Below are positions 4,208-60,173 of a stretch of 64,000 bases of DNA, piece by piece. The stretch is from a virus. Lineage: Duplodnaviria; Caudoviricetes. The stretch covers positions 320,001 to 384,000 of the IMG/VR virus record IMGVR_UViG_3300021255_002539. One strand, given 5' to 3'. The notes beneath the pieces were generated by a model. It was not told the origin of the DNA. It did no database searches and saw only the letters and a list, made by a program, of their open reading frames with translations. Every line of letters starts with the position of its first letter. Position 1 is the stretch's first letter. Position numbers and translations under genes: made by a program.

Positions 4208-5428
4208 TCATTCTCGTGGTGGTTTTTTACACGTAAATCCTAATATACTTTGATTCAAATCATTTTTCGTATCATTTATTCCCTTTTCCAGACCTTTGCT
4301 TGCATCTGAACCAAAGTTGTTCAAACCATTGACAAATGAGTCTCGTATATTATCTTTATCTTCCTGTGTGGCGTCTTCAGGCAAAGGCTTTGGTAATTCT
4401 GTGGATATGTTACCATGTTCCTGGCTATATTCTTCTATATCATTAATGATTTTGTTTATGCTATCTTCAGTAATGTCGCCACTAGCCAATAGATCAGCAA
4501 TATCTTTTGCAATTTCCTCAAGACCCTATAACGCTTCGTTCATTTTCTATAAGGTTTCCGATAAACCATTTATGTAGTCGATTATTGGATCATCGGGCTC
4601 AAAATATGGACACCAATCGTCAAATGAATTGAATGCCTCAAAACTAGATTCCGCACAATCCAATGTTCCATTTACAGCACCCTTCTCCAAACCAGCAACC
4701 AATCCAGTCAAAAGAGTGGTCAAACATGCGCCAATTTTAGTTGGGTCTTTGTCATATGCTATTTCGTCTGCATATTCCTTGCCAAATGAAATGAATATTT
4801 GATTTACGGTCTTTAATGTATCAACTATTTTCCCCTATTCAATAATCCACTAAAGCATTTTTAGTTTGCATTCACACTCATATGGGGTGTCTGTCGTCAC
4901 ACGATATACCAAGACACCAGTTTCTATAGTCAAGTCAACTGGAAGTATCACTGTTTGTGTGCAAATTCCAGTAACTTCCCCCAAAATGTTGGATATATCC
5001 TTCAACGCATCGTATGGGTGTAGTGTTGCGGTGTCTTTTGCGAAATCCCATATATTGCCCAATGCTCGTCCAAGCCCATTAGCCACATCGCAAAAATAAT
5101 TACCCAAACCCCTTGAACTCAAGTTTCTTGAACTCAGGTTTCTTGTATTTGATTCGTCTGGATATCGTTCATTCACCAAGTCAATCAATTCTTGGGTATC
5201 GTGTTCAACTGGTTCACACCCATCCCATATATGTGGGTTTTGGTCGTATTTTTGTTGGCACATATCCAATACAGAACCGCCTATGTCATAGATATCCTTG
5301 ATTAGATTATGGGTTGTTGGCTGCCAATTTTGTTGCGCATCATTTAACTGTTGCCTAACCAATTTAAGTTGGTATTCGGGCGACAATACCGATAATTTGG
5401 TAGACTTGAATCGTTTTATGTATACCAT
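4208..5428 (-). CDS. Hypothetical protein, ~406 aa, with 4 in-frame TAG (recoded)
   Basis: ORF pieces 4850..5494 and 4208..4489 are in one frame, interrupted only by TAG; ends TGA; AT-rich; GTAAATA upstream. Confidence 0.7.
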
Positions 5429-5502
5429 GACATTAATGTGTTGATGATTTAGATATATATATTTACAAAAAATTTTGATTATCGTATAATTCAATAGATA
5501 TC

Positions 5503-6069
5503 ATGGACATAGAACTAAAGCTGATAGAAGACGAACAGGGAAGGGATCTCGCCAAGAACATTGTCGAGAAACACCATTCCTATGTTCCGACATATAAATC
5601 TGTCGGTCGCAGGGTGGATTGGCTCGTCTACATAGATGGCGAACTGTGTGGCATGATTGGCATTGGCAGTTCCACATATCCGCCCTGCAAGGACATTCTT
5701 CGGCACTTGGGCATGACCAAGGACGACTACAAGGAGCAGTTTAACTCGTTCGCCAACAACTGGAGGTTCTGCATGATGAAGTCGGTGAAGAATGCTGGAA
5801 CCCAAATACTCAAGCAATTGAGAAACAAGGCGAAGGTGGAGTGGAAGCGGAAGTATGGCGACGACTTGAAGTACCTCATCACATTTGTCGGGGCTGGGCA
5901 CAATGGGGCAGTATACCGAGCCGACAATTGGAGCTGCATTGGCAAGACCAGCGGACTTCCCTCACACAAGTCGGTCTCCATGAAATGGGACAACGGAGAG
6001 CAAATCAAGGAGAAGTTCGTCAAGCCCACTGGCGAGAACGCAAAGCTGATATTCTTGAAGAAACTCTAA
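5503..6069 (+). CDS. DUF4338/DruA-like (Mom/GNAT-like) protein
   Basis: HHSY..GR..WLV...GMIGIGS...NNWRF...W..KYG..L.TFV...GAVYRADNW..IG.T.G pattern. Confidence 0.65.
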   Translation: MDIELKLIEDEQGRDLAKNIVEKHHSYVPTYKSVGRRVDWLVYIDGELCGMIGIGSSTYPPCKDILRHLGMTKDDYKEQFNSFANNWRFCMMKSVKNAGTQILKQLRNKAKVEWKRKYGDDLKYLITFVGAGHNGAVYRADNWSCIGKTSGLPSHKSVSMKWDNGEQIKEKFVKPTGENAKLIFLKKL

Positions 6070-6085
6070 AGGAGAGAAACAGACG

Positions 6086-7123
6086 ATGATAGACTTTGAG
6101 GAAGACATATTGGAGAACACTGGAACGGGGGATTTCGCCCCAACAAGGGAAGCTGGTCTCTGGGTGACGAAGTACAGACCACGCACATTGGAGCATTTCT
6201 GCCTTGACGAAAAGCTCAAGACGATGTTCCAGAGGCAAATTGACGAGAACGATGTACAGAATGTATGTTTGGTTGGTGGTCCAGGGATTGGAAAGACGAC
6301 ATTGGCCCTGATTCTGGCCAATTCAAGCAAGGATTCTGACATATTGTTCGTTTCCTGCGCATCTGGCGAGGGCAAGGTGGAGTCGATTCAGTCGAAGATT
6401 ATTCCATTCTGCCAAAGCGCATCCAAGGGCAGGAAATTCGTGATACTTGACGAATTGGACTCCGCTTCCTCCACGCAGGCAAACTCATTCCAAAAGGCGT
6501 TGAGGAATGTGGTCGAGGCATATCCAGATTGCAGGTTCATAGCGACCGCAAACTATCAATCCAACATCATTGGGCCGCTTTGCCCATCAAGGCTTCCACC
6601 TGTGTCCTTGAGCTTCTCTGTTTCAGAAATGATTTCCAACCTGCTCTATATTCTAAGCGAGGAGAACATAGAGATTGTGAGCGAAGCCAGCAAGACAAAG
6701 CAGTTTCTCGGGAGCCTCATCAAGTCCTACTACCCAGACATGAGAAGCGTTGTTGGTCAACTTCAAGCGGCTTGCGTCGGTGGGAAGTTGGATGTGGAAA
6801 GCATCGCCATCAACAACAAGGAGGCAATCAAGAACGCAATATCGGAGTTTCTGGCTCTGGTTAAGTCCTCTGGGACTCCACTTGAGATGCGCAAGGCGTA
6901 CAACAACCAGATCCTGGCGTTTGGCAACAATGGCAACTTGTCGAAACTGTGCAGTCCATTGGGGTTGGCAGAGGAGATTCTGAACTACATAATCGAGAAC
7001 CACAACGCCAGCATGGAGGACTTGATGGCATTGGTGGAGTACATCTACAAGATTGAAAGAAGTGTTGACGGTGAAACACAATTCTTCGGCTTCTTGCTCA
7101 AAGTGAAATCAATGGCATTATGA
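6086..7123 (+). CDS. Clamp loader AAA+ subunit (T4 gp44 / RFC-like)
   Basis: WVTKYRP, Walker A GGPGIGKT, Walker B ILDELD, SR arginine finger, YPDMR. Confidence 0.9.
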   Translation: MIDFEEDILENTGTGDFAPTREAGLWVTKYRPRTLEHFCLDEKLKTMFQRQIDENDVQNVCLVGGPGIGKTTLALILANSSKDSDILFVSCASGEGKVESIQSKIIPFCQSASKGRKFVILDELDSASSTQANSFQKALRNVVEAYPDCRFIATANYQSNIIGPLCPSRLPPVSLSFSVSEMISNLLYILSEENIEIVSEASKTKQFLGSLIKSYYPDMRSVVGQLQAACVGGKLDVESIAINNKEAIKNAISEFLALVKSSGTPLEMRKAYNNQILAFGNNGNLSKLCSPLGLAEEILNYIIENHNASMEDLMALVEYIYKIERSVDGETQFFGFLLKVKSMAL

Positions 7124-7790: not shown

Positions 7791-8441
7791 TCAGCCATTT
7801 AGGTAGCAACCACAGGCATACTCCCTCTGGAACTTCTCCCAAATGTCGTCGTCCCAGTCTCTTGGGTCTCCCAGCGCCTCCACATCAGGCTCATCTTCAG
7901 CCATTTCGTGCGCCTGTTCGTAGATGTCACCACAGAACAGCCAAAGTAGAATTTGGGCGAGTTCGTTGTCTGTCTTGGATTCAAGTTCCTCCTTGTCCCA
8001 GGCACCGTACTGCTAAAGATGTTCAATTGCAGCCTCCCTTGGCAGACCAACATCGAACTTGAGATCGTCCACCCACATGGCAATCTCATCGTCCTTTGAG
8101 CCTGGTCCTGAGCAGTCAACCACGCAATAGCCAGGAATTGGCTTCGTGAGTTCATAGGAGTTTCCGCCAATCTTGTGAAACCACTCAGACTTCTGTTCAT
8201 CAACCGACTCCTCGAATTCCTCTGGTCCGTCGTATGCGGTGTAATCCATCTGACCAGCCAATTCCTTGATCTCGTAGAAAGCATCGTCTGCCTGGTGCTT
8301 CCAATAGGTCTTCTCCTTTATGTCGTCGTCTGCCGTGGCAATTCCCATGCCCTCGCAGGCCTTGCCATATTCTATTACAAGCTGAATGAGCTTCTTCGAC
8401 TGCTCGTTGTTGAATGTCGTCTTTTCGTTGAACTTCCTCAT
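7791..8441 (-). CDS. Hypothetical protein, 1 in-frame TAG (8013)
   Basis: Readthrough gives AIEHL[Q]QYGAWDKEEL...LLWLFCGDI and ends at TGA 7791. Confidence 0.7.
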
Positions 8442-8467: not shown

Positions 8468-9217
8468 TTACCATGTTTGTCCATATCTGTCTATGAAGTC
8501 CTGTCTTGCCTGCCTTTGCATTTCGAGTCTTTGCTTGTCCTCCTCGGATTCCACCGCTGGCGCATTCATCTGCTGCTCCAACCCGCTCTTGTCCAATATG
8601 ACGAAGTGGGTATATGCGCATGTGAACGAGTGTTGTATCTCGTCAGTTTCAGAATACGACAATTGCAAATCAGAGAACGCCTTGATCCAGCAGTTCTTGA
8701 ACCTGAACGCCACTATGGGCTTCTTGTAGGGCGATAGCAAGGTAACATCAATGTCGCACACATGTGTCAAACCATTGGCATCCACATTGCCAGTGTCCAG
8801 CGCATTCGCACCCTTGTTCACAGGGGCGTTGTTCATGCACCAGTTGTACAAGGCCCTGTAATCCGTCCAATCCGAGCGGATGAAGTAGTTGAAGGTGATT
8901 TCCTTGCTTCCAGGTGACATTGTATATGTTGGTCTCTCTATTTCGATTCCACGATAGGACACCTTGTCAGTTCCCATCTCTATTGATGGGATTGTGAAGG
9001 TCGAAAGACGGAGGTTCACATTCTAATAATCGGGGCCTAAAACAAGATATAACGGAACATCTGCTATCCACTTGTTTTTAGCGGCGAACGTGTTCTAATC
9101 CGATACTCCATCAGAGGCTGGAACATTTACACCCGGATATACCAACTACTAGTTCCTGTTGAGGTTCCTAGTCTAGTTTGGGTGTTGGAAGTGATTTACA
9201 TTACTTGGTACTGCCAT
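8468..9217 (-). CDS. Tail completion / tube terminator-like protein (T4 gp3-like fold), 5 in-frame TAG
   Basis: GGAGGTG SD before ATG 9217; core TIPSIEMG...YRALYNW...VAFRFKNCW..FSDLQLSY...FTCAYTHF. Confidence 0.6.
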
Positions 9218-9740: not shown

Positions 9741-11417
9741 TCAATCTTCCGCAACGCAGATATCGTAGTATTCCTTGAACGCCGATTCGCACTTCCTCAT
9801 GCAGTTCTGGAAGAACTCCATTCTGTTCACCCTGTCCTGGCGCGTGTACTCCCACAACCTCTGGCGGAACTCGTCGAATGCTGCTCCAACCTCAGCCCAT
9901 TCGTCGTCGTATGATTCGTTGACCAGTTCATCCTAGTCGATGTAGTCGTATTTGTCCTTGATTCTGGTAAGACCCTTGCTTACTATTCTGTCGTGGGATA
10001 TGCCATCAGGGGACAGTTCCAACTCAGAAGGGACGACCTCGTTGCCCTTTCTGTCCTTTGTCGCAAGAACGTCGCACATTTCGTCTGATGTTGAATAGGA
10101 CATCCTTTCGCCCTCGAAAGAGCCAACTCCACCATCAGAACCGATGAAGAACACATATCCATCTGGCGCGATTACGGTATACCTTTCGTAGAAGTCGAAG
10201 TCTGGACCAAAGTCGAAGACATGCCATTGACCATCTCCAACAGAATCATCTTCCTCGTTGTTGTCTTCAATGGACTCGTCATATTCCTCGTTTTCGTCGT
10301 CAAGGTTTTCTTCTTCTTCCTTCTCGGCGCGGTCGTAGATGCTCTGGTGTCCGCCATTTACTGCGTCAGCCAGGTCAGGCGCATTGAGTTCAAGCTTCTC
10401 TATGTCACCATAGAACTCCCTGCCTTCAACACCAACATGGTCAGACTCGATTGGCTTGTCCGTGGGCAAGTCGGCATGTACCCATCCCCAACCATAGTCA
10501 AAGGCAATGTCCATTTCCTGATTCTCAAGTTCATCGTGGAGTTCATCGTCGGCTTCGTCTTCGTCGTAGCTGTTGCAGGAATATGCAATGGTGGCGACAC
10601 CGCCATCAATCTTGGCATATGCCTTGTCTCCAATTTCATGCTCTTGCCAGAAGAAGTCGTTGTAGTAGTCCTCGGCTTCAACTTCGTATTCGCCAGGGAG
10701 GATTTCAACCTTGCATTCGTGGTAGCTCTCGTACTTCTTCTTCTGCTCAATGTACTTCTTGTCCAGAATCTTGCCGAACTTCAAGCCCTTGATGCGAACA
10801 GTATAGCCAGCACCAGCACCTTCCTTCACGAGCTTCTTTGATTCAAGCCCCAATTTCCTCTTTGTGTATTCATCAGCGTTCTCGGCGATGTCCTCCGCCT
10901 CAATCATCGTTCTGCACTGCCCTATGTTCAAGCCATTCTTGTTCGTAACAATGAAGCAATCTCCCATATCATGGATATTGCATCCATTTGCTGCTGGAAT
11001 GACCTTTCTGCCCGCTTCCTTGGCAAGTTTCTTGGATTCTGCCATTCCCGCCTTCCTCTTGTTCCACCAATCCTTCAGTTCCTTGTTGGGGTCGTCCAAA
11101 TGTACTGTCTCGCCAACATCCAATTCCTTCAACTGCTTGGTTGGAATATCCTTGTGACCATAGGTGTGGAGGAATGAGTGAATGTGGGTAAGGGTCGTTC
11201 CGGAGAGGTAGTCGTCGAGAAGCGAGAAGTCCTGTCCGTTTCCGTCTTCACACCTTTCAATCCTGGCAACTGGAGTGCCGTAGGAAATGAGAGTGAAACC
11301 ATCTCCATCGTCCTCTACATACGCCTTGCGTCCAAATGAGGCGCGTCCATTTGTGGGTTCAAGCTCCTTTCTGACATTCTCAGTCACGGGCTTTTTCGTT
11401 TCGTCTATGTGTTTCAT
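9741..11417 (-). CDS. Acidic hypothetical protein, possibly a head-internal protein, 1 in-frame TAG (9933)
   Basis: ATG overlaps the upstream TGA; readthrough continues 63 codons to TGA just before the terminator; repeated ESKKL.KE motifs. Confidence 0.7.
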
Positions 11418-12019
11418 CTTTTTGCTTCCTCGTTTTTCCAAATTGCTATTACAGGGGCTTCTTCTTCCTCCACATCGTCGTCAAGGACAATCTCGAATTG
11501 TCCATGCATGTTGTTCTTGTCGATGTATTCGTCAGATATCCTGGGGTCTTCGTACTTGAATATCTAGCCGAATTTGTCCACCAAGAAACCCACAACCTCG
11601 TCGTAGAACAAAATTGCAGAATCGCACTTCTCATCGTAGTCTGGGTCATACTTGTCGAAGTCGAACCAACATATGATTTGGTCGTCATGCAAGGTGATGT
11701 TGGTCTTGATGAAGTTGTCGCTGAACAACTGGCCATTGTATTCCCTTGCCACTGCGTGGTATATTTCGTCCAATGTGGGTTCTTTTGATGTGATGTACGA
11801 ATCAAGCATCTTCTTTACAACATCTGGGTTGAATTGGCACCAATCCTCGAAGTCCCTCAATTTCTTGTCCTGTGGGTATTTGCTGAGGTATGTCGCCTCC
11901 AGGTCGTCGAAGAACGCATCTGGGTCTATTGTCTACCCTTTGTACACCAGAAGTTCCCTGGAATCGTCGAATGTGACTCCTGGGATGCCATAGAAGCCGT
12001 CTTGTTGTAGTTTGTCCAT
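11414..12019 (-). CDS. Hypothetical protein, 2 in-frame TAG (11933, 11564)
   Basis: Readthrough ends in an ATGA overlap with the next gene; GTAAATA upstream. Confidence 0.75.
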
Positions 12020-13882: not shown

Positions 13883-15400
13883 ATGGCTATTACGACGACA
13901 ACAGACAACAAATCTACATTCTTCAAGGAGGAGCTGTCAGACAAGACCCTGGAGTTGATGCTGTTCCGGGAGATGGTGCTCAATTCTGACTTCATGGACA
14001 AGATCTCCAATGTAGTCGACTTCAGGTGGTTCAGAACACCATGCATCCAGTTCATGGCGAAGTTCGCAGTAGGCTACTTCAAGAAGAATGGCATATTGGT
14101 GACCCGGGACATAATGGAGTCCGTAATCCAGAGGGTCAACGAGAACCAAGCGATTGCTGCGAACAAGATTGACCTGAACGCCGCCATGTTCGACTTCAAC
14201 AAGGCAACAACGCTGAACCTGGGAGAGATGTCCGACAAGGACAGAATGGCGAAGATCCAGGAGTATGTGAAGCAGGAGGCGATGAGGAACGCCCTTCTGG
14301 ATTCCGCAACCGACCTGGAGCGCAAGAACACAGATGGATTGGTGGAGAACACGCTGAAGAAGTTCGACGACATCCAGAAGTTGGTTTTCGAGGAACTGGA
14401 CTTTGGAGTTGAGATGTCATCGGATGAAGTTGACAATTCCCTTGAAGACCACATCGACTTCCTCACGAATCCATCTGCGAGGATTCCGACTCTTTGGAAT
14501 TGCCTGGACGACGTGACGCATGGTGGCTTCTTCAAGGATGGCAAGTTCCTGGGTGTGTTCATGGCTCAGGCTGGACTGGGCAAGTCGAACATCTTGGCGA
14601 ACCTAGGGTACAACTTCCTCAAGCAGAACCTCAAGGTTGTGGTGATCTCGATGGAAATGAGCCAGAATGTGTATCTGCGCCGATTCGACTCCCTCATCTC
14701 CAAGATCGACATCGACGATTTGGGGTTGTCCAGCATGGTTGGTCAGTTGAAGGACAAGGTAGAGAGGTTCTACAAGCAAGACTACCCAGGGGCGAGGCTC
14801 AACATCAAGGAATTTCCACCAAACAGCAAGTCAGCGAAGAGCTTGGGGCAGTATGTGGAGAAATTGGTGGTCGCGAAGGGTTGGAAGCCGGATGTCCTCA
14901 TAGTGGACTACCTCAACCTGCTCAAGCCGAATGCTGGTTCCTCCCATGGCGATTCCACGATGTACGAAGATGGCAAGGCGGTGTCCGAGGAACTGCGCAA
15001 GTTGTCGTATGACTTGTCCATTCCCATAATAACTGCGGTCCAGTGCAACTCCAGTGGCTTCAACACCGCCGACATTGGAATGCAGAACATAGCAGAATCC
15101 AGGGGAATCGCCCACACCGCCGACTTCATAGCTGGACTCTACCAAACCGAGGACGAGCAGGAGCAAGGGGTGTTCCACATGAAGATATTGAAGTCCAGAC
15201 TGGGCGAGAGCAAGAACCTCAAGTTCGAGTTCAACAAGCGCACGATGGAGTTCACCGACATCAACGATGTTGACGATGGGATGGAAGCTGTGAAGGAAAG
15301 CGTTGATCAGGGCAAGAAACCGACAACCAATTCACTGACCCCTGTCAGATGCGAAGTCGACGACAAGGATCTGTTCATGGGAGACTTGGGGATGCCGTAA
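13883..15400 (+). CDS. Replicative DnaB-family helicase (T4 gp41-like)
   Basis: AQAGLGKS, ISMEM, IVDYLNL, TAVQCN, IAESRGIAHTADF, KSRLG. Confidence 0.9.
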   Translation: MAITTTTDNKSTFFKEELSDKTLELMLFREMVLNSDFMDKISNVVDFRWFRTPCIQFMAKFAVGYFKKNGILVTRDIMESVIQRVNENQAIAANKIDLNAAMFDFNKATTLNLGEMSDKDRMAKIQEYVKQEAMRNALLDSATDLERKNTDGLVENTLKKFDDIQKLVFEELDFGVEMSSDEVDNSLEDHIDFLTNPSARIPTLWNCLDDVTHGGFFKDGKFLGVFMAQAGLGKSNILANLGYNFLKQNLKVVVISMEMSQNVYLRRFDSLISKIDIDDLGLSSMVGQLKDKVERFYKQDYPGARLNIKEFPPNSKSAKSLGQYVEKLVVAKGWKPDVLIVDYLNLLKPNAGSSHGDSTMYEDGKAVSEELRKLSYDLSIPIITAVQCNSSGFNTADIGMQNIAESRGIAHTADFIAGLYQTEDEQEQGVFHMKILKSRLGESKNLKFEFNKRTMEFTDINDVDDGMEAVKESVDQGKKPTTNSLTPVRCEVDDKDLFMGDLGMP

Positions 15401-17225
15401 CTGGCATGGATGCCGTAAGCAATTCCTGCTCATCTTCGGTTATTTCCTTGCACTCCCAGATGTACACCTCTATGTGTGGTGGTATGTTGTCGTGTGGAAT
15501 CGTGACCGTGTGCGTATTCGACGATTCTGGGTACTCCAATGGGGACATCTGGTAGTTTACCTTCACATTCTTCACAGTGTTGGTTTCTGAGTACTCGTTC
15601 AGGGTTCCAATTGGGGTGGTCTTCACATTGACTACTGCGGCCTGTTTCCCACTGATGCCCCCTTGCAGCCAATCTTGACCTTGTGTAGTGGACTTTTCCT
15701 CCAACGTCTCGTCGTGTGTGTGGATTGGAACATTGGATTCGCGCAGACACACATATTCCTCCCCGAATCTCCTGCCCAACTTCGCGGCCTCGTCCACTCC
15801 CCGGAGGAAGTTCTCTATTCTTCTCCACCGCTTGCCACCATAGTGGTTGATTACCTTTTGCTCTATGTCGTCTGTGGTGGATATGACGACCCTCCCAACA
15901 TATGTCAATGGCCTCACAGACACGAGCAACTACCGAACCAAATCGATCTTCCCACCAATAACCTTGATTTGCTCCATCATCTTGTGGCAGCGGACATTGA
16001 ATTCCTGTCTTGATTCGAGCAGTACATCCAGGAATGGGGTCAGAATCTCGGAAATGGATCTTCCATCCTCCCCCTTGAGTTCCCTACCAGCAACATCTGT
16101 GAATATGTCCAAAAGCTGACCAACCCCCTGCCGCATCATCTTGATGTCATCCTCAATCGAATCTTCCTCAATCTGCAACCGAAGCAGACAATCGGATGGT
16201 GTAAGGTTCTCCACTTGGTATTTCACCAGTCCATTTACGGTGCTCGACTGGTATTGGGCCTCCACCATCGAATCCTTCTTGACCTTCAGTGGTTGCCCAA
16301 CAACATCCCTGCTTGATGAGGATTCCTGTTTGATGGTGGTATATGGGAATGTCACTGCCTGTCGTCCGATGGATGTATTGTTGCTGCTTTCCATGTACTT
16401 GACATATACATTCAGGCAGGGAGGTACATTGTTGTGCCTCTTGTTGGGGGTTCTCCAGTCCAGGATGTTCTGACCATAGAGTGGGAACGTGAGTTGGTCA
16501 GTTGTGGAAGAATTGCATTTGATTGGGTGAACCCGAACCCCCTTTGGAGAACCCCTGTTGTCGTCTTGGGAGACCAATTGGTAGTTCCCCTATGCGAATA
16601 TGCCCAGAACATCGCCACCCAGTTTGTTTCTGGAAATTGGCACGGTAAGGGTTTCTGCCTTCGTATTTGGGTGGTCATGACTGGGAACCTGCCCGACAAT
16701 GGATTCCTCAAAGTCGCTCTGGGGTAGTTCTGCTCCAAATGTCTGACACCATATCTGACCAAGTGCCTTTTTGAAGTTTTCGTATTTCACCAAATCAGGA
16801 ATGGCCGATTCCTTGATGGATTGGATTTCGGTGGCACCAGAGTAGTTCAAGACACCCTTCCTTCTCAATTTCAGAATGTCGTTGTCCAGTCGTTCCTCCA
16901 ATTGGTCGAGTCTAGTCTATAGGTCCGAAATGAAATCCTCTGCAACCGATCTTCTAGCATATTGGGTGAATTGCCCAGCAAGATCCTTTGGCTTCACTCC
17001 TGTTGGATCCAAGTAGGGATGTCCCTGCTAGTCGAACTTCACCAGTTGTCCGAATATGGTCTGGTAGAACTCGTTGAACATCTGCCATTGGGTGACTGCG
17101 ATGTATCCACGAGGCTCTTCCTGCATGGGGAAGAACAAGAAGCAATCGTTGTCGTTGCTGGACAGCGAAAGGTCCAGTACGGAAATCGGATTTACTCTGA
17201 GGTATTCTCTTACATCTATGTTCAT
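15375..17225 (-). CDS. Baseplate/tail-associated protein with gp10-C-like modules, ~616 aa, 4 in-frame TAG
   Basis: Four ORF fragments share one frame, separated only by TAG (17028, 16917, 16590, 15930); YVGRVVIST..GGKRW...HDNIPPHIEVYIW and an internal HNNVPPCLNVYV repeat. Confidence 0.7.
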
Positions 17226-47183: not shown

Positions 47184-47193
47184 ATTGAAATCC

Positions 47194-48369: not shown

Positions 48370-48379
48370 ATTGTCAAAT

Positions 48380-48455: not shown

Positions 48456-48462
48456 GATGAAA

Positions 48463-48642: not shown

Positions 48643-48645
48643 AAT

Positions 48646-48731
48646 TGGTTGCCAGTCAGGGTAACGCTCCCCGTGGGCTTTGAAACAAGTGATTTACAGT
48701 CACTCCTCGCTCTTTACGAGACTACCTGGCA
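48646..48731 (-). tRNA. tRNA-Tyr(GUA)
   Basis: AGTGA-CTGTAAA-TCACT. Confidence 0.8.
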
Positions 48732-48737
48732 ATAAAT

Positions 48738-48815
48738 TGGTTGGGCGAGTGGGTCACGATCCCACGACCTTCTGTGTATCAGACAGACTATCTAAACCAA
48801 CTGATATACCGCCCA
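48738..48815 (-). tRNA. tRNA-Ile(GAU)
   Basis: TCTGT-CTGATAC-ACAGA. Confidence 0.85.
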
Positions 48816-48828
48816 ATTGAAATCTTAA

Positions 48829-48902
48829 TGGTAGCGAGTGAGGTAGTCGAAACCCCATTGAAGGATTATGATTCCCCTGTTCTGCCGTTGAACTAACTCG
48901 CC
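48829..48902 (-). tRNA. tRNA-Met/Ile2(CAU)
   Basis: Loop ATCATAA. Confidence 0.8.
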
Positions 48903-48905
48903 ATT

Positions 48906-48983
48906 TGGAGCTGGAAGAGGGTGACGATCCCACCACCTGCGGTTTACGAAACCGCCGCTCTACCAAGCATGAGCTATTCCAGC
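48906..48983 (-). tRNA. tRNA-Thr(CGU), canonical size
   Basis: GCGGT-TTCGTAA-ACCGC. Confidence 0.85.
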
Positions 48984-48994
48984 ATTGAAATCGT

Positions 48995-49073
48995 TGGTAG
49001 GGATGATGGGATTCGAACCCATACTACGATGACCCTGAATCATCCGCCGACTGCCAAATTGGTCTAGTCTCCC
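48995..49073 (-). tRNA. tRNA-Leu(CAG) with short variable loop
   Basis: GATGA-TTCAGGG-TCATC. Confidence 0.7.
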
Positions 49074-49079
49074 ATTATC

Positions 49080-49153
49080 TCCCGATGGAGGGAGTCGAAC
49101 CCACAACCAGGGAGTTTTAAATTCCCCTGCTCTGCCAATTGGCATACATCGGG
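49080..49153 (-). tRNA. tRNA-Leu(UAA) with short variable loop, CCA not encoded
   Basis: GGGAA-TTTAAAA-CTCCC (31:39 mismatch). Confidence 0.65.
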
Positions 49154-49199
49154 TCTAACACAGACAAGGAACAATGAACAACGAACCACAACAACAAAT

Positions 49200-49283
49200 T
49201 GGTGTGCGATAAAGGACTTGAACCTTCACATCTTTCGACACAGCCACCTCAAGGCTGCGTGTCTGCCGTTCCACCAATCGCAC
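49200..49283 (-). tRNA. tRNA-Leu(GAG)
   Basis: CAGCC-TTGAGGT-GGCTG. Confidence 0.9.
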
Positions 49284-49516
49284 AATAAAGGCCGCACCTA
49301 CCTCCAAAGTGGGAGTCGAACCCACGGGCAACACGTCTGCGCCCATGCCGATATTTGGAAGTTTTGTCCCTTATGAGACGCGCCTGATGCAAGGCGCAAC
49401 ATTGAAAGCCATCTTCTGACCTTTACATACGCAGTTGGAGTTGAACCAACCTCTCCTCCCCATGAGGGGAGCAACTATCCGAGAATACGAAAGGTGTGGA
49501 CAATCAATGCTTGAAA

Positions 49517-49591
49517 TGGTAGAAGCGACAGGTGCTGCCCCTGCATATCACATCTTAAGAGGATGTTGCCTAGCTGCTCGGCCACGCTTCC
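49517..49591 (-). tRNA. tRNA-Lys(CUU)
   Basis: ACATC-CTCTTAA-GATGT; T loop GGCAGCA. Confidence 0.85.
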
Positions 49592-49646
49592 AAAAATTGC
49601 TCCCCAACCTATGTTGGCACGAACCATGAGTTCGGGAACATTGAAA

Positions 49647-49737
49647 TGGCTCGGGTGAGAGGGTTCAAACCTCCAGGGGCGCAGTTTGCGTCTCGGCTTA
49701 ACAGGCCGTGCCGTTATCAGTTACGGTTTACACCCGA
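49647..49737 (-). tRNA. tRNA-Asn(GUU) with long variable arm
   Basis: CGGC-CTGTTAA-GCCG; G73. Confidence 0.75.
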
Positions 49738-49745
49738 ATAAATCT

Positions 49746-49820
49746 TGGAGCATCGTACCAGTGCTGCCCTGGTCTACTTCAGCTTGGAGGGCTGACGGAC
49801 GGCTGATGTCCCAACGATGC
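49746..49820 (-). tRNA. tRNA-Gly(UCC), C33
   Basis: TCAGC-CCTCCAA-GCTGA. Confidence 0.8.
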
Positions 49821-49828
49821 ATTTGAAA

Positions 49829-49916
49829 TGGTCCCGAGAGTGAGACTCGAACTCACACGTCTTTATGGGACAGCGGATTTTGAGTCCGCCAAGTCTACCA
49901 GTTCCATCATCTCGGG
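49829..49916 (-). tRNA. tRNA-Leu(CAA)
   Basis: GCGGA-CTCAAAA-TCCGC. Confidence 0.9.
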
Positions 49917-49923
49917 TTGAAAT

Positions 49924-49997
49924 TGGTCGGGGTGAGTGGAGTCGAACCACCGCCGTATGAACCCAAATCATAAGTGCTACCGTTATACCACACCCCG
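49924..49997 (-). tRNA. tRNA-Pro(UGG)
   Basis: TATGA-TTTGGGT-TCATA. Confidence 0.9.
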
Positions 49998-50521
49998 TTT
50001 GAAATTGAAAAGGTCGTTCTCAAAGGCAATCTATCGTGTTCTGGACAACACGGGTCAATTACTCCCTAGTTGCTTTCTCCCAGATACATGAATGTGTCTT
50101 ACTAATTTACGCGCAGGCACAATGTTGCTCTAGACCAATCGCAGGCCACTTGTGGGTTTTCTGCCCAATCCGTGCTTCTTACACCATGGAGCAATTCGAC
50201 TTGCCTTTGATTCATCGCATGAAAAACCAACTTTTACCTTGTTGGACTCGAACCAACCTCTCCTCCCCTGCCGGGAGGCGTACTGACCACTAATACGAAA
50301 GGTGTGGATTTCCATGCTAAATTGAAGTGGCTGTATCTCGCAGTCATGCCACATTGAAATTGAACAAGGCACTATTTGGATGACAAGTATCCAAAAGATT
50401 CCCAGCTCCGAACCGGGCGTTTCAATAACTAAGGCATAGACTGTCCATCTTGTCATAATGGTCATCTACACCCATAGCGGAGGCGTTTATCTCCTCAATC
50501 TTGTCGTGCCATGAAATCTAC

Positions 50522-50604
50522 TGGTAGCGGGTGACCGAGTTGCACGGTTGCTTTCGCACCAGGGTATGAACCTGGCAAGGGCGCTGCTCCCTAACACACC
50601 CGCA
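50522..50604 (-). tRNA. tRNA-Met(CAU), initiator-like 1:72 mismatch, with small V arm
   Basis: CCAGG-TTCATAC-CCTGG. Confidence 0.7.
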
Positions 50605-50730
50605 CTCTTGAAATAGCAAAACCATTCGCTTTAGACCCAAGGTTCTCATCTGAGTTTCCTCCAAGGGCTGACTCGCGCATGAGTATTCCCACATGGGGAA
50701 CAGTCTTTCCATCTTTCTTTTCCTCTATGT

Positions 50731-50850
50731 CAATTATCAAAGATCGCTTGTGATTGCCTTGCGTGGTTCAAGCAAACCTTGCTTTGCTTTAGCAAACCTT
50801 GCTTTGCTTTCACATCACATATTATACCACATTTGACTGGTATTTGTAAA
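50731..50850 (-). promoter_or_regulatory. Array promoter P2 plus boxA-like element
   Basis: CCCCC-TTTACA-N18-TATAAT, then GATCTTTGATAATTG. Confidence 0.7.
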
Positions 50851-50875
50851 GGGGGTTTGAAAAGTTTTTTGAAGT

Positions 50876-50952
50876 TGGTTGGGGTGACGGGGCTCGAACC
50901 CGCATCCCACGGTTTAAAGGACCGTTGCAGAATCCACTTTTGCTACACCCCA
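50876..50952 (-). tRNA. tRNA-Lys(UUU), C33
   Basis: ACGGT-CCTTTAA-ACCGT. Confidence 0.8.
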
Positions 50953-51274: not shown

Positions 51275-51636
51275 CATCTTCCTCGTTTTCCTTGAAGGAT
51301 ACTCTCTTTACTCGCTCGTCCTTTTCTCCTTCTTTTACTATCCTCGGTTGATGTTCAGACCCACATGTTCTGATGCTTTCTTCGCCTCGTTATCTACCAA
51401 ATTGCGCTTCGTGCTGCCACAATACTGAAGTCGGGACTCGGCAAACGGCAACATGCCATTGGCTATCTGAGACATAAATCTCAGATTACCATGGTTCAAT
51501 GCGCCAAATTGCTGTGTCGTCATCGTCATGTTTTGTCTATCTATCTTTCTTTCCACCTTCTTCGGTGTTCGTATATTATTTACACGGAATCACTCGAAAA
51601 CCATGCTTCAATTATACGAAAAGTTCAGGAAAATTT

Positions 51637-54630
51637 TCAGGAGTTGTTTTTTGTTGTGTTCCTTAGTTCCTCCAAGTCGGCATCGCTTGACAAGAACGCA
51701 TCTTCTTCCTTGTCTGGGTTGCGCATGAACTCTGCGTCTGGCTGGGCGAATTTACCACTTACGAAACATCTTGGATCACTTACCAATGTACTCAAGACTG
51801 TGTTAGAAGAGTTCTTCTCAATGTTGTTTTTTAATTCCCATATATTATTGTTTAATGTGTCCCATTTATTATTTTCATTATCTATTATTTCACATACCTC
51901 ATCAAATATTTCTTCGGCATAGATATCCATATCGTCGTTATCAAATTTATCCCAATCAATGTTATCGGCCATCCAAATCAACCTTTTCCTTGGATCTGTA
52001 TTTGGTTCATAATCTTCGTCGTCAGTTGAAGGTTTAACATAATCCATTACATTCAGTGAGTAATTGGCGAATATATTTGTAATTTTCTCAGTTATGTGTT
52101 TTTTCAATGTTAAAAAATTGGGCCAAGAGTTATATCTGACAAAATTACAAAGAATCCCATCTATGTTATGCAATATGTATCCAATGAAACTGTTGTGTAT
52201 TCTATATCTTTTTCCAAATACATCCGGGGCGATGAAGTTGTCTATATAGGAATTCGCCGGTGGATATATATATTGCCCACTGTCGTTTTTCCTATAGTTT
52301 CCATTTGAATCTTTATATGGTTCTTGTTCATCCCTCGAAAAATAAGTATTTCCATTGTCTCGTATGTCAGCCAGAATATATGGCTATAAGGTCTTCCAAT
52401 TTTCAACGAACCTGTCGCTTGGGAGAAAATGACACATTAGTTCAAAATTGTTTATGTAAAATTCCTCTATCAGCTTAAATGCTTTTGTCCTGTACGCAAT
52501 CATGAAATTGTTGAAATTCTATGCTATATCGGAGCAATGTTTTGATTGTTTAATGATCTTGCGTAATACTGGCCAAGCTGCATATTCGCAGTTCTAATAA
52601 TATGGTTTTCCATTTACAAGAACTCTCTCGATATTTCCAATACCTGTGTGTGTGGCATTTGCGTCAAAAAACGCCATTGTATCTGTATATCCACAAAATT
52701 GGTTTAAGTTTGTGAATATATGACTATTTGGACTTCTTCTACTGTAATTATCTCGTGTAATACCCTATCCAAAACAACAATGATCAAATATCAAGAATTT
52801 CGTTATACTAGAAAGATTGGTGCAGAGAAAGTGGAGTTCATCAAGAGACTCGCCAGTCCACCACTTGTTGGGGTTATCAGATGAGCAAATATATGAACAA
52901 TCTTTCTTGGAATCTATGTCGTTATATTCTATTCTGGAACCATGACACTTTAGAAATTCCACCCTAAAAGGCGAGTCTGTTTTACAATATTGAACTATTG
53001 CGTTTTTATCTACTCCATCCTAAAGATTGGCCGAAGCATAGATTCTGGTATAGTAGTGTTTACGATTCCAATCATCATCTACAGCCCCATAATTCTTATC
53101 TAACTTTCTATGCAAGTACTTATATCCTATATTGTCTGGAAATCCAGTTGAGTCTTTTGATCCAAATGAACCACCACCCTTTGATGAATCACAATGCAAA
53201 ACAAATTCCACAGCTGCCCAGGGTTTGACTATCGGTATTACAATTTTATTATATAATTTGTCTTCGGGAATAAAATCCTCATTGTGGCAAATTCTAACTT
53301 CATTTGAATCCCATGCTACACTGTCGTCCTCGCCAACTTCCCTTACATACCAATAGTCTGTGAATCTGTGAAATAGTGAATTGCATTTCGCAATTTGTTC
53401 CAAAGACAATTGTTTTTTACCTTTGGTTACTTGTCTAACTATGTTGTAGTATCCAGATATGGGATAATTGTAATTTAGGTTAAATAGACAAACCCATCTA
53501 TGCTTATATGGGATATTTTGGACATCTTCCCCATTTTCTATATATCTGTTCAATCTGTCGTCGTCCGGGCGGGTATTTCTATCAATATCCTTGTTCCGAA
53601 TATAATCATAATATGAGTTGTACAAGAACTTTTGCGTATTGCGCTTTTCCAATACTGTACTCTCATCTCCAAATAAAGTCTTGGGGAGAGTTGAATAGGA
53701 AACTTTTAGAAGTGATTTTCCACATTTATACCTTGTTTCATCAACAAGATTATATTCATCGCTTTCGCCATATGGAAACGAAGCTTGAAAAATCGCCAAA
53801 AATGCATCTATATACATCAATATTGTTTTTATGTTTTTGCAATCTATTCGTAGTCCAAAGGAATTGTTTATTGTACAACTATACCCCTATATAAAATTGC
53901 TTTTTTCCTCCCCAAAATGCCCAATATATGAATCTTTTGGAACATCGGGATTCCTGGTCCCAATGTCAAATTGATGCACTTTTTCCCTTACAAGTTGATT
54001 GTCTTCATTTGTTGGGGACGAATAGTCTCCTTCCGTGTTATACAACCAATCAAAACCCAAAATATTTGTATATGTGTGTGTATTTCCAGTGTGTTGTCTA
54101 TGTATAACTATTTTTGGATCCGCCCCTTCTTCCCAGGTGAATTTGTAAAACAAGCACTCGTCGCACTAATCATTGCCAATAATTTTCAATTGCATATCTG
54201 TTTGTTCGGCAATGATTTTAATATGACTAATCATATTACGTGAATTTAAGGGCTCCGCGTCCACTTTCTTAACAAACTCCCAGTCATCATCAATATGTAT
54301 GCAACTTGATAGATATTCTTTTCCATTGGAGGTATACTCTCCCCTGTCTCCCAATAAATTCATGCTTCGGGTTTCCCATTGAGGTTCATAGTCAGGCTAA
54401 TCCAACGATGATGTATCTTTGACCAAACATTTGAGTACATGAACTCCGGGATTTGGCTTGAACAAAACAAACCATTTGGTGTTTGTCACTACACTTTCTC
54501 CTGAGTTGTTATACATTTTTCCTCCAGGAATGCGAATTATGCTTCCGAATTCACTTCCTTCCTCAAGTATCACTTGATTGGTTTCAAAATATGTATATTC
54601 AGCCATGGATGTGTACCTCGTATATTGCAT
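51637..54630 (-). CDS. Large hypothetical protein, ~997 aa, with 8 in-frame TAG
   Basis: Six ORF fragments plus the gap 52174-52764 read in one frame with only TAG interruptions; TAATG coupling at start; ends TGA. Confidence 0.75.
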
Positions 54631-55967
54631 TATTGGTCTAGTTCTTCGTTAAATGGTACTTCATATAGATATGGTAGCGATTTATCATCTGGGGTTTCTT
54701 CGTTGATAATCACAACTTTATTTGGTATTCTTGCGTCCGCCGGGGCAGCTGCTGTTGGTATATCTATATCACTTATGAGATCCGTCCATAGTTGAGTTGT
54801 CATTGTGGATTCGTCATTCCCTGAATATTTTATATTGTATCCCAATTGATTCACCACTATGGTTTCCCATTCAGAATCCAGATAGCCAGTTGAATTGGAT
54901 GGTACTGTAAGGGTCTTGTTGTCGACCAATATTCCCATCTGATACTCCGGTGATGATTCGCCAAAGGCACTCTGCCCCAGACGGGGTGCGGCAACTGCCT
55001 TGGATATGATGTTCTTCAGGTTCAAGCATCCAAATAAAGCCCCCCTGTATATCATAACAAGATTTTTGGGCAATGTGATGCTGGTTATGTTCTTGCAGTC
55101 CTTGAAGCAGAACGATATGATTTCTACCACCTTGTCACCAAGCTTCACATCCCCAACAATCATGTTCGCGTTTGTATTTGTTTCTGGGTCAAATCCAACC
55201 GTTGAAATTCCGAACCGGGACACATTGTCGTCTATCCTTACATTGTATGTTCCAACTTCCCCATATGTGTGCGTAATCTCAGAAAAAACGCTTTGTGCAT
55301 AGGTATTGGTGGTGCCATCTCCCCAATCTATGGTGGCTTGTTCAGAACCCTCCGAAAGTGTTATTCCATTGTGTATGTAAAATGTCTTGTTAGACTCATC
55401 TGTTATCTGGACGGTAAATTGTGTTCCAGTGTATTCAGATTCACTTGGCTCGTCTGGCTCGTTTGGATCGTCTGGATCGAATTGGGGTATTGGATATTGT
55501 TCGTCCAACTCCTAATCCCATCCACTGGGCAGTTCATAAACATGCTTTGAGATCGTGATGTCAGAATTGACGGCAATCGTATCTCCCTCTTTATATGTCG
55601 TCTATCCTATGTCTATTCCACTCATTACGCATTCCTTTATCGTGTATGTCCCCTTCTCAACTACAATGTCCTTTTCCCCACCATATATCCCAGGCAAGGT
55701 TATGTCAGTACTGGACGCTCCCCTAGAATTTGGGCAGATTACTATGTCGAATCCAACTTGATTGTGTATTGTTGCAGGGTTTTGTATTTCAATTGGCTCA
55801 TCTGGTTCATCTGGTTCAATTGGATTGGATGGATCAATTGGTTCGTCCGGATCAATTGGATTGGATGGTTCATCGTCGCTCCATTGTTGGTATGTTCCAA
55901 GGTATATTGCAGAAACCTTTCGATTTCCAATATACAATCCAGATAATCCATTCAAGTTGTTCGCCAT
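54630..55967 (-). CDS. Adhesin-like protein (Pro/Asp/Glu linkers, PKD-like IDWGDG, BspA LRR), 2 in-frame TAG
   Basis: Fragments 55602..55967 and 54630..55508 joined via TAG 55602 and 55512. Confidence 0.75.
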
Positions 55968-56145: not shown

Positions 56146-56529
56146 TCAGTTGTCAATGACTGTGTTGGTGTTGGTTGTGGACGACAAGACGCCAGCATCA
56201 ATCTCCCTGAACAAAGTGGCAATCTTGAGCAGGTCGTCAAGCTTGATTGATATTGAGTTGGTTGGTGTTGACGAGTGGAGACCGCCCAGGTTGAAGTTCA
56301 CTGTCTTGTTGCTTGTGATCTCGGCAGACATTGAGTCTATCTATGTGCTGAACCCCCATTTCGTGTATTTCACTTGGTAGCCCTGGTCAACTATGACATA
56401 TTCCACTGGATTGGTCTGGCTGGATTCGGAGTATATTGGGAATGCCAGATTTGGCCGCTTGTCTACAATCACCTTGGCGAAGCATCCTGACAGAACCAGG
56501 GATATAAGCAATATCAGGATCTTGTTCAT
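56146..56529 (-). CDS. Lipoprotein (lipobox LSGC), candidate lysis accessory, 1 in-frame TAG
   Basis: MNKILILLISLVLSG-C; in frame with 56146..56331 across TAG 56341. Confidence 0.7.
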
Positions 56530-57089
56530 CGTTCAAGCTTGCTTGGTTCGGACGCCACCATCTTGATTTCCTGTGTCCCGAATATCTCCGCAACGAAGTC
56601 CTCGAACCTCTCCTTGACATCGTGGTTTCCACCAATGGAGCTGTAGTACTCGAATTCGTCCTTGATTCGCCGATACTGCTTTTGCGTTATCTTCTTCGTG
56701 GCTTCGTGGAAGTCGATTGTCTTGATGATGTCGTCCCTCAAGAGCCAGATGGTACCCTCCTTCGCCTTGTTCATCATCTCCTGGTGGGTTACAGCATTCT
56801 TCTTCTCGAAGTTGTCGAACTTGTCACCAATCTTGTCGCCAATCTTTGACTACATCCAGTGGAAACCAATTATGATGCTGATGACTATAATGGCATCACA
56901 AATGAGGGAGAACCTTCGCGCACTTCTATTGGAGATGTCTGTCTTCTAATTGCCGCAGTTCTGGTTGTATACTGCCCCATCTCCAAAGGTGATGTTCGTG
57001 CCAGTCTGCTTGAAGGAGTCGTCCACATTGGAATGATCGTCCATGCTCAGGTCTGCCGACACATGTGGATTTGTGATTGGAATGTCCAT
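56526..57089 (-). CDS. Holin-like single-TM protein, 2 in-frame TAG
   Basis: TM AIIVISIIIGFHW flanked by TAG 56946 and 56850; LLRDDI...YY.SIGGN..V motif seen in phage holin-annotated proteins; GAGGTG SD. Confidence 0.55.
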
Positions 57090-58874: not shown

Positions 58875-59130
58875 TTGGTGTTTTCCTTTCAATTAGAAAT
58901 CTGTGTATATTGGCTTCACTATGTATATCCCCTTTGCCTCTGACTTTATGCTTTGGCTTTTGTTCCTGTCCTCGGCGAATTCGTTTGCGATTCCTTCGTC
59001 CCGAAACACCCCAATTACCTCATGGTTTCCACTGATGTGGTTGATGAATTGCACCGAATACAATTTGTTGATGTTGTCCATTATCCAAGATGCCTTTCGT
59101 TTGAAAGATGCCTTTCGTTTGATGGTTCAA

Positions 59131-59583
59131 TTATACGCCATCCAGTTTGACGAATCTGAGGCACACGCCAGCTTCCTTGAACATTTGGCTGGTGAGTTCT
59201 GTGCTTTCCTTCCACCGCTCCGGTATCTCGGCATCTGGGACATACACGAACTTAATTCCACTTTGGATAATCAAGGCGGCGCAATGGGCGCAAGGTGGCA
59301 TCTTGGTGACATAGATGGAGCAGCCATTCAGATTCTGCTTTGCGAACATTATGGCGTTTTCCTCAGCATGCAGAATCATCTTGTACTTGGTTGCCCTGTC
59401 TCCCAGTCGGTCGTTGGTATCCTGCACCCCAACAGGCAGCCCATTGAACCCCGTGGAGATGACCCTGTTCTGGGAATCCACTATCACAGCCCCAATTTGG
59501 GAAGACGGGTCCTTGCTCCAAGACGCAACCAAGTACGCCATGTCAAAGAACCGCTTCTGCCATTTCGTAGCCAGTTCAGCCAT
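59131..59583 (-). CDS. dCMP deaminase
   Basis: SKDPS.QIGA, TGFNG, HAEENAI, PCAHCA. Confidence 0.9.
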   Translation of the reverse strand: MAELATKWQKRFFDMAYLVASWSKDPSSQIGAVIVDSQNRVISTGFNGLPVGVQDTNDRLGDRATKYKMILHAEENAIMFAKQNLNGCSIYVTKMPPCAHCAALIIQSGIKFVYVPDAEIPERWKESTELTSQMFKEAGVCLRFVKLDGV

Positions 59584-59848
59584 TGTCCAATCCCCCAATC
59601 TTGAGCAGATCTGAAAGCGAGGAATTGGTCTCCTTCATCAAGTTGGACAAGTCCGACACGGCAGAATACAATGCCATCTCCTGCTCCACAGTGAACTTCT
59701 TGGTCTCGCCATCGACGCAATCGTAGATGCGGTCGTCGTCGAACACGCCTGCCCTTTCTGCCTCATCGCGATCCCTTGCCATCTCGGCCAGTTCATCCTC
59801 GGGCAAGTCCTTCAATATGCCCTCTATGTCGTCTACTTGATATGCCAT
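59576..59848 (-). CDS. Hypothetical protein
   Basis: AAGGAG SD; promoter TTTACC-N17-TATAAT. Confidence 0.7.
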   Translation of the reverse strand: MAYQVDDIEGILKDLPEDELAEMARDRDEAERAGVFDDDRIYDCVDGETKKFTVEQEMALYSAVSDLSNLMKETNSSLSDLLKIGGLDNG

Positions 59849-59933
59849 TGGTTTTCTCCTTTTGCTATATTATACCACTTCGCGGTCAAATGGTAAATAT
59901 ATCCAAACATCAACATTCATCTTCATCATCACC

Positions 59934-60173
59934 ATGGTATACGACGCACAGACATACAAGGTTTTCCACCAACTCACTGAGAATGGGCAGTTCCACTATT
60001 TCGCAATGCTTGAACACAAGGCAGACGAACTCTTGTTCAAGAAAAAGCACTTTTTCCTGTATTGGTGGTAGAGGTTCCGCAATTGGGTGAGGACTGGGGA
60101 TTCAGAATGGATTGGACCAGAATACCCAGACGAGAAGCAGTACCAAGATGGCTTTTCCTACTCAGAATCCTGA
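59934..60173 (+). CDS. Small hypothetical protein, 1 in-frame TAG
   Basis: GGTAAATA upstream; readthrough of TAG 60069 fills the gap up to the convergent gene. Confidence 0.55.

Follow-up and report, generated by a model that had tools for sequence, protein, structure and literature searches.

Amber codons in the late genes of a complete 414-kb T4-like jumbo phage are very probably read as glutamine

Results

In-frame TAG codons in the window

The window analysed here, a stretch of 64,000 nucleotides whose late genes carry in-frame amber (TAG) codons, spans bases 320001-384000 of the 414,060-bp IMG/VR record IMGVR_UViG_3300021255_002539, a single contig with direct terminal repeats that is rated complete and has a GC content of 48%. 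An initial annotation, made from the letters of the window, had proposed that TAG is reassigned, most likely to glutamine, and had claimed about 46 in-frame TAGs in 16 genes; with TAG left open, we count 16 credible window genes carrying 45. None of the 16 contains any other in-frame stop. All 85 called window genes end in TGA (57) or TAA (28), in line with the claim that the other genes use these two stops, and none of the 85 needs read-through of TGA or TAA. Genome-wide, in-frame TAG occurs at 314 sites in 104 of 449 genes. The evidence set out below indicates that, in its late genes, this phage very probably translates UAG as glutamine.

Judged by its gene set, the phage is a distant T4-like jumbo myovirus of ruminant gut samples. 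Pfam and PHROG searches found homologues of all five members of a T4-like core set: the portal protein gp20 (PF07230, E=6e-68), the major capsid protein gp23 (PF07068, E=4e-72), the tail sheath stabiliser gp15 (PF16724, E=5.8e-19), the prohead protease gp21 (PF03420, E=1.1e-11) and a gp55-like late sigma factor (PHROG 234 'late sigma transcription factor', E=3e-17). Cultured relatives are distant, the best gp15 matches in INPHARED being cyanophage proteins of about 24% identity, too distant for residue calls. Close sequence relatives were seen in sheep, bovine and goat gut runs and also in other animal gut runs. Two complete relatives, IMGVR_UViG_3300021400_000025 (418 kb; G1, also labelled G001) and 3300031992_000002 (434 kb; G2, also labelled G002), served as comparison genomes. 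RNA contigs from one sheep-gut metatranscriptome cover parts of the region, with the TAG sites outside the coverage.

The 16 TAG-bearing genes are given below in window coordinates; late motif positions refer to motifs of the [GT]GTAAATA type.

4208-5428, minus strand: late gene, 406 aa, no assigned function; open only with TAG as sense; four TAGs, codons 193, 198, 294 and 301 counted from the ATG at 5428
7791-8441, minus strand: late gene, 216 aa; one TAG, codon 143; late motif 8472
8468-9217, minus strand: tail-tube-like late gene, 249 aa; five TAGs, codons 15, 23, 24, 41 and 65; weak match to PF06841 (gp19), E=0.0024
9741-11417, minus strand: late gene, 558 aa; one TAG, codon 495; start overlaps the upstream stop (ATGA)
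11414-12019, minus strand: late gene, 201 aa; two TAGs, codons 29 and 152; late motif 12035, 8 nt before the ATG
15375-17225, minus strand: baseplate gp10_C-like late gene, 616 aa; four TAGs, codons 66, 103, 212 and 432; weak match to PF21939, E=0.0055; late motif 17241
20420-21244, plus strand: BspA-type leucine-rich repeat (LRR) late gene, 274 aa; three TAGs, codons 113, 159 and 189; weak match to PF13306; late motif 20382
23671-24855, minus strand: late gene, 394 aa; two TAGs, codons 18 and 37; downstream of late motif 25286
26431-27567, minus strand: T4 gp15-like tail sheath stabiliser, 378 aa; three TAGs, codons 2, 30 and 343; PF16724 above cut-off; late motif 27593
29588-30325, plus strand: T4 gp21-like prohead protease, 245 aa; one TAG, codon 185; PF03420; PDB 5jbl, E=8e-4; late motif 29550
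36013-36504, minus strand: candidate late gene, 163 aa; five TAGs; late motif 36578; least certain of the 16
51637-54630, minus strand: large late gene, 997 aa; eight TAGs; start overlaps the upstream gene's stop (TAATG)
54630-55967, minus strand: late gene with BspA LRR and PKD-like parts, 445 aa; two TAGs, codons 122 and 152; PF13306, E=1.3e-8; late motif 56002
56146-56529, minus strand: small late gene, 127 aa, lipoprotein-like N-terminus; one TAG, codon 63; present in both relatives, E=9e-41
56526-57089, minus strand: late gene, 187 aa; two TAGs, codons 48 and 80; phrog_4105, E=4e-7; late motif 57167
59934-60173, plus strand: small late gene, 79 aa; one TAG, codon 46; present in both relatives, E=3e-24; late motif 59892

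The first of these genes has the motif TGTAAATA at 5467, 39 nt upstream of its ATG, and found no match in Pfam or PHROG; the 997-aa gene found no family match in either collection. For the candidate at 36013-36504, a homologue is absent from the two relatives and a family match is likewise absent. Homologues of 9741-11417 with 53-69% identity lie on five IMG/VR contigs. In a search of PDB sequences the alignment of the gp21-like protein ends before its TAG, and the gp15-like protein found no match.

All the local details named by the initial annotation were recovered in the sequence. The gp15-like gene begins M-TAG, the contexts SGNI*TL and MF*GCTSL lie in the LRR gene at 20420-21244, the ATGA overlap is at 11414-11417, and the TAA of 25335-26429(+) adjoins the TGA of 26431-27567(-). 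The tandem TAG-TAG assigned to a gp3-like gene is real and corresponds to codons 23-24 of 8468-9217(-); the gp3 identity did not stand, the Pfam match, below cut-off, pointing weakly to the gp19 tail tube. Two further open reading frames (ORFs) with TAG were rejected as genes: 44984-45172(-), which lies inside the tRNA array, and 51335-51556(-), with 73 aa, no homologue and its TAG at the ORF end.

TAG as a sense codon

Using a codon log-odds model trained on long ORFs, we examined in-frame stops that follow 50 strongly coding codons across the whole genome, and asked whether the same frame is still the best-coding of the six after the stop. This holds for 86% of TAGs (n=134), compared with 15% of TGAs (n=250) and 28% of TAAs (n=105). 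With our own simple gene caller, used in place of Prodigal, genome coding density rises from 86.2% under code 11 to 91.6% with TAG as sense, and falls to 81.7% or 85.3% when TGA or TAA is opened instead; this is the gain in density that the initial annotation had expected. Mean gene length increases from 208 to 283 aa once TAG is sense, and within the window coding density goes from 71.7% to 79.3%. Frame continuity and coding density together place the sense reading of TAG far beyond chance.

Comparison with other genomes gives the same picture. Both complete relatives carry in-frame TAG within the same genes, and a second run from the probable source sample shows the same TAG codons 2 and 30 in the gp15-like gene. 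Close public homologues of the tail-tube-like and portal proteins are cut at the N-terminus and begin just after TAG positions, the cut portal homologues starting for example at residues 75 and 159-178, and public fragments of relatives of the tail-tube-like protein begin or end at the TAG places. These N-terminally cut homologues are gene calls made under code 11. Frame continuity, the density gain, interruption by TAG only and the TAGs in the same genes of relatives bear out the proposal that TAG is a sense codon.

Promoter classes and TAG use

The 8-mers upstream of genes define three promoter classes: E, [CT]GTATAAT; B, TATAATAT; and L, [GT]GTAAATA. Motifs of classes E and B are sigma-70-like, while class L resembles the T4 late promoter TATAAATA. 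Each gene was given the class of its nearest upstream intergenic motif on the same strand. Genome-wide, the 140 genes of class L hold 264 TAGs (4.06 per 1000 codons), the 99 of class E hold 33 (1.55 per 1000) and the 176 of class B hold 9 (0.28 per 1000), the genome as a whole having 2.5 per 1000. The division is sharper in the window, where 16 of 20 class L genes contain TAG and one of the 65 others does (Fisher p=1e-12), this one being the spurious ORF inside the tRNA array. In-frame TAG amounts to 7.4 per 1000 codons in the L genes of the window and 0.09 in the rest, and out-of-frame TAG is only about 2-fold apart between the two groups. In class L genes TAG accounts for about 10% of glutamine positions. 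By these motif assignments, TAG use is essentially confined to the late (virion) gene class.

The functions follow the same division. TAG-bearing genes encode the tail-tube-like protein, gp15, the gp21 protease, the gp10_C-like protein and LRR proteins; the TAG-free window genes encode, among others, a gp44-like clamp loader, a DnaB-like helicase, an IMPDH/GMP reductase, a metallophosphatase and a DNA methylase. Early and late genes alternate gene by gene along the genome. Elsewhere in the genome the portal gene (407865-409808(-)) carries four TAGs and the major capsid gene (204870-206054(+)) none, as might result if TAG is selected against in the late gene with the highest expression.

Five of the nine class B TAGs lie within 14 codons of the ORF end, in these early-class genes outside the window, each with one TAG 1-14 codons before TGA or TAA:

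genome 53697-54545, minus strand
genome 249323-249535, minus strand
genome 273368-273826, minus strand
genome 385222-386235, minus strand
genome 386320-387213, minus strand

For one early-class gene with such a terminal TAG, the G2 orthologue ends one residue past the TAG position. TAG may still terminate a few early genes, backed by a second stop behind it.

These distributions bear on the view that TAG is a leaky stop with low read-through, yielding mostly truncated product and attenuating the late proteins. The few TAGs near ORF ends and the wholly TAG-free capsid gene would suit it, as would the phage's lack of a detectable release factor 2 (RF2) or anti-RF1 function. Against it, essential virion genes contain several TAGs each (four in the portal gene, eight in the 997-aa gene, a tandem TAG-TAG, a TAG at codon 2), and a low efficiency at every site would leave almost no full-length product of such genes; coding signal and homology also continue unchanged past TAG. 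We therefore regard a leaky stop as improbable.

A candidate decoder tRNA

The window contains a large tRNA array, and the one candidate decoder lies 22 kb before the window:

window 41964-50952, minus strand: tRNA array, 27 tRNA genes and a transfer-messenger RNA (tmRNA) gene, from ARAGORN and the Rfam tRNA model
genome 297902-297980, minus strand: tRNA(CUA), the only cloverleaf with a CUA anticodon found genome-wide

The array includes a tRNA-Gln(UUG) at 43748-43821. ARAGORN finds no CUA anticodon in it, and over the whole genome such an anticodon is reported by neither ARAGORN nor the Rfam tRNA model; allowing introns and a low threshold in ARAGORN produced 857 calls, which we discarded as noise. 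We then scanned the genome ourselves for anticodon stem-loops of the form YU-CUA-RN and, more loosely, for cloverleaves. Both scans return the single tRNA(CUA) listed above. Its acceptor stem is 7 bp long and includes U1-A72 and G2-C71; the discriminator is G73, the CCA end is encoded, and the anticodon loop reads C-U-CUA-A-C with U35. Its D loop lacks GG and its T loop has 8 nt, GTGGCAAA; ARAGORN and Rfam miss it because these two loops are non-canonical. The elbow seems to be held by a short helix between D loop and T loop, TGCC:GGCA (TACC:GGTG in a homologue).

The tRNA(CUA) occupies a 182-nt intergenic gap with a class E TATAAT promoter ahead and a strong terminator hairpin after it. It directly follows a 487-aa gene that also precedes the tRNA(CTA) detected by ARAGORN in G2, and it shares promoter and leader with the tRNA(CTA) of G1. 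Over its 79 positions, a homologue in IMGVR_UViG_3300021399_000102 shows 13 differences. Four compensatory pairs account for eight of them: the anticodon stem holds one pair, the T stem two, and the fourth links D-loop 17 to T-loop 60. Of the other five, two keep a wobble and three are unpaired. These compensatory changes mark a selected, structured RNA. The covariation rests on two sequences, because pattern scans returned one IMG/VR contig and none among metagenome contigs. BLAST of the tRNA(CUA) against the relatives' genomes gave no match, and their suppressor tRNAs differ from it in sequence and architecture. Three architectures are seen: a long variable arm in G2 (410487-410576(-)), an A.A mismatch atop the acceptor stem in G1 (268611-268687(-)) and the rebuilt elbow in this genome. 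To judge from these three genomes, the suppressor tRNA gene is fast-evolving, with its CUA anticodon kept.

From this setting and structure, tRNA(CUA) is likely the decoder of UAG; its acceptor features, taken with the codon data below, would fit charging with glutamine. A different possibility is that decoding comes from the host or a co-resident element and that the odd phage cloverleaf plays no part in it. The non-standard elbow of a cloverleaf missed by two tRNA finders leaves some room for this, and host or competitor tRNAs have been proposed for recoded phages without a detected suppressor (PMC13037316). Early-class genes, however, avoid TAG, as expected if the cell stops at UAG when the phage enters; both complete relatives have their own tRNA(CTA), one of them in the same syntenic place; and the changes in the cloverleaf are compensatory, with CUA and the CCA end kept. 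Decoding from outside the phage accordingly earns little credence.

The amino acid at UAG

For the identity of the residue, all proteins were codon-aligned to the two relatives, and columns were kept that had eight gap-free neighbours, at least five of them identical. In 88 of 175 such columns TAG stands opposite a glutamine codon (CAG 63, CAA 25); the other partners include AAG 20, GAG 12, TAG 11, TAT/TAC 3, TGG 3, TTG 1 and TCG 1. Glutamine is thereby the most frequent residue opposite TAG, the outcome on which the initial annotation had staked its amino-acid call. Scored by log-likelihood, the partner profile gives -346 for Q and -599 for the runner-up, K. Where true glutamine codons are replaced in these alignments, K is the main substitute and E the next, and the TAG partners show the same order, Q > K > E.

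Within the window 18 TAG columns can be aligned, with CAA in 7, CAG in 5, TAG in 2 and other codons in 4. All five TAG places of the tail-tube-like gene are CAG, CAA or TAG in relatives; codon 30 of the gp15-like gene is CAG or TAG and codon 343 is CAA or ACA; codon 185 of the gp21-like gene is CAA and CAG. The TAG of 59934-60173 lies opposite Q in both relatives, and at another site of this gene a TAG of G1 lies opposite a Q of this genome.

Since the relatives are themselves recoded, we turned to distant portal homologues as an outside test. Portal codon 161 is a TAG inside the Pfam domain. Among 78 full-length homologues with 37-61% identity, 56 have Q at this column, 9 have E and 6 have N, where the background frequency of Q in this comparison is 4.3%. 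The Q at this column is read from public proteins, and translation of the distant homologues under code 15 is unlikely given their sources and the code-11-style cuts in close relatives. Tail-tube columns 41 and 65 are variable and polar in distant homologues, with 12% and 9% Q against a background of 3.8%, an enrichment too mild to inform the residue call. In the late sigma factor the invariant motif FAYFTQ[VI]CWSC has TAG in G2 where this genome and G1 have Q. Column counts, log-likelihood, portal column 161 and the sigma motif agree with the assignment to glutamine first proposed from the window, and on this comparative evidence TAG almost certainly stands for glutamine.

That the same tRNA(CUA) inserts another residue (Lys, Glu, Tyr, Trp, Ser, Leu or pyrrolysine) is a slimmer prospect still than the two alternatives above. 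Lys (23) and Glu (17) are the next commonest partners, the body of tRNA(CUA) is not clearly Gln-like, and ARAGORN calls the relatives' tRNA(CTA) 'Pyl', by anticodon only. Yet Q leads by about 250 log-likelihood units and holds 72% of portal column 161, the two-step codon CAA is found 25 times while the one-step neighbours for Tyr, Trp, Leu and Ser are rare, and true glutamine codons, too, are usually replaced by K and E. Pyrrolysine was rejected specifically, though no separate search for PylS was made, the substitution pattern being that of glutamine and the 'tRNA-Pyl' label coming from the anticodon alone. Assembly or sequencing errors and decaying pseudogenes are already excluded as the source of the TAGs, as the frames are interrupted by TAG only and never by TGA or TAA, the TAGs recur in independent assemblies and other samples, a second run confirms codons, and the interruptions are limited to one promoter class.

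An amber-bearing late sigma factor gene

The gp55-like gene (genome 79305-79961(+)) has a class E promoter and matches its PHROG over residues 36-205. Codons 24 and 26 are TAG and are not followed by any in-frame start before the conserved part; a TAG is kept in the relatives (codon 25 in G1, codon 24 in G2). Full-length late sigma factor consequently needs UAG decoding, a need that would place late transcription under tRNA(CUA).

The order of events can be sketched as follows. The tRNA(CUA) would be made early, from its class E promoter, and charged with glutamine by the host glutaminyl-tRNA synthetase (GlnRS), for which U1-A72, G2-C71, G73 and U35 would be the relevant features. The charged tRNA would outcompete host RF1 at UAG, and only then would the late sigma factor be translated in full, followed by the TAG-bearing virion genes. 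Such an order from tRNA to sigma factor to late genes could be a selected timer or a neutral by-product of a late suppressor. Taken together, the amber codon could be a developmental clock with the rebuilt early tRNA(CUA) as its master switch, late transcription and late translation both waiting on it, so that UAG would be stop early and glutamine late; the few early genes ending near a TAG may belong to this picture by using it as a real stop with a second one nearby. We offer this joint clock only tentatively, as a possibility we would not bet on.

Discussion

Several points weigh against the conclusion that UAG is read as glutamine in the late genes by the phage's own tRNA. The glutamine call is comparative in nature, and about half of the aligned TAG columns are non-Gln in the relatives, codon 63 of 56146-56529 for instance lying opposite GAC (Asp) in both; TAG hence sits mostly at weakly constrained polar sites. 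The promoter classes were defined by k-mer motifs instead of by mapped transcription starts, and 33 TAGs sit in genes that have an early-type class E motif as the nearest one. A host using the standard code is suggested by TAG avoidance in the early genes. The elbow of tRNA(CUA) is unlike that of any standard tRNA, so that we infer its function and charging, and whole-sequence similarity to the phage's other tRNAs shows no clear affinity to tRNA-Gln. Neither a release factor (PCRF, RF-1) nor a GlnRS (tRNA-synt_1c) was found in the complete genome by searches that detected their positive controls, and RF1 would have to be outcompeted at up to eight TAGs per gene.

Reassignment of TAG to glutamine (code 15) in gut phages is already known, from Lak megaphages, from crAss-like phages and from the clades with recoded TAG described by Borges et al. 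(bioRxiv 10.1101/2021.08.26.457843), with proteomic proof in crAss-like phages (PMC9523058). The present phage is a sound new example. The comparison with Lak and crAss-like phages drawn by the initial annotation is to the right class, since the defining features tested here were all found. Like other code 15 phages, it has in-frame TAG in structural and late genes with early genes that look standard-coded, a phage-borne tRNA(CUA) for which glutamine is deduced, an animal gut origin and fragmented gene calls under code 11. It differs from them in several ways. With 414 kb and a T4-like gene set it fits none of the clade sizes given by Borges et al. (bioRxiv 10.1101/2021.08.26.457843), and its TAG-bearing and TAG-free genes are interleaved singly instead of lying in blocks. 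TAG density is low, and the gain in coding density of about 5 points falls under the 10% cut-off used in a survey of jumbo phages (PMC13037316). RF2, an accessory feature of some recoded phages, is absent from this genome, and the suppressor tRNA is non-canonical and missed by ARAGORN and the Rfam model. What is particular here is the combination of a T4-like lineage of 414-434 kb, partition of TAG by promoter class, low TAG density, a hidden tRNA and an amber-bearing sigma gene.

In T4, late genes depend on the late sigma factor gp55 and the late promoter TATAAATA. Classical amber suppression employs the supE tRNA-Gln(CUA), and T4 amber mutants are grown on supE hosts; those ambers are laboratory mutations and the suppressor belongs to the host. 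The phage described here resembles T4 in its homologues of gp15, gp21 and gp20, its gp55-like sigma factor, a -10-type GTAAATA that recalls the T4 late promoter, and late genes scattered among early ones. The mechanistic parallel to T4 ambers on supE is that a tRNA-Gln-like CUA suppressor would restore amber-interrupted late genes. Here, in contrast to T4, the ambers are wild type and conserved among relatives, and the suppressor is phage-borne.

Under code 11 about one quarter of the genes of this phage are split or cut short, among them the late sigma factor gene and those for portal, tail and baseplate parts. Public protein sets already contain such fragments from its relatives. A suppressor tRNA was found in only 40% of the genomes with recoded TAG, and missed non-canonical tRNAs were predicted as a possible reason (bioRxiv 10.1101/2021.08.26.457843). 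The present genome is an instance. Given the small density gain and a tRNA missed by ARAGORN and Rfam, genomes of this kind could be overlooked by density thresholds or recorded as 'recoded without a suppressor'. The T4-like framework provides recognisable promoter classes, and the idea of recoding as timing (Borges et al.) therefore becomes readable gene by gene here. The restriction of TAG to one promoter class, and a decoder that lies outside the window and is missed by standard finders, were not visible to the initial annotation.

Further observations

A late-type motif TGTAAATA at window position 51584(-) has no convincing gene behind it, only the rejected ORF 51335-51556; after this, tRNA-Lys at 50876-50952 is the first feature downstream. 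The middle part of the array holds the tmRNA gene (48037-48369(-)); its tag peptide is GNDYRMAA and that of its G1 counterpart GNDYSMAA. Eight tRNAs called by ARAGORN are not above the Rfam cut-off (Thr-tgt, Ala-tgc, Gln-ttg, Arg-cct, Ser-cga, Glu-ttc, Ala-cgc and a weak Leu-cag of 19 bits). Those missed by Rfam in the array include 41964-42052 and 44689-44778 (both minus strand), and two are 89-90 nt long; like the suppressor, such tRNAs may have introns or odd structures. For the tRNA at 47853-47926(-) ARAGORN leaves the anticodon undetermined, with 2 bases; by eye the loop reads G-U-CAU-A-G, and this is probably a CAU (Met or Ile2) tRNA. Several tRNAs, the suppressor included, have the hexamer TTTCAA ahead of their 5' end, and this hexamer may be a shared processing signal.

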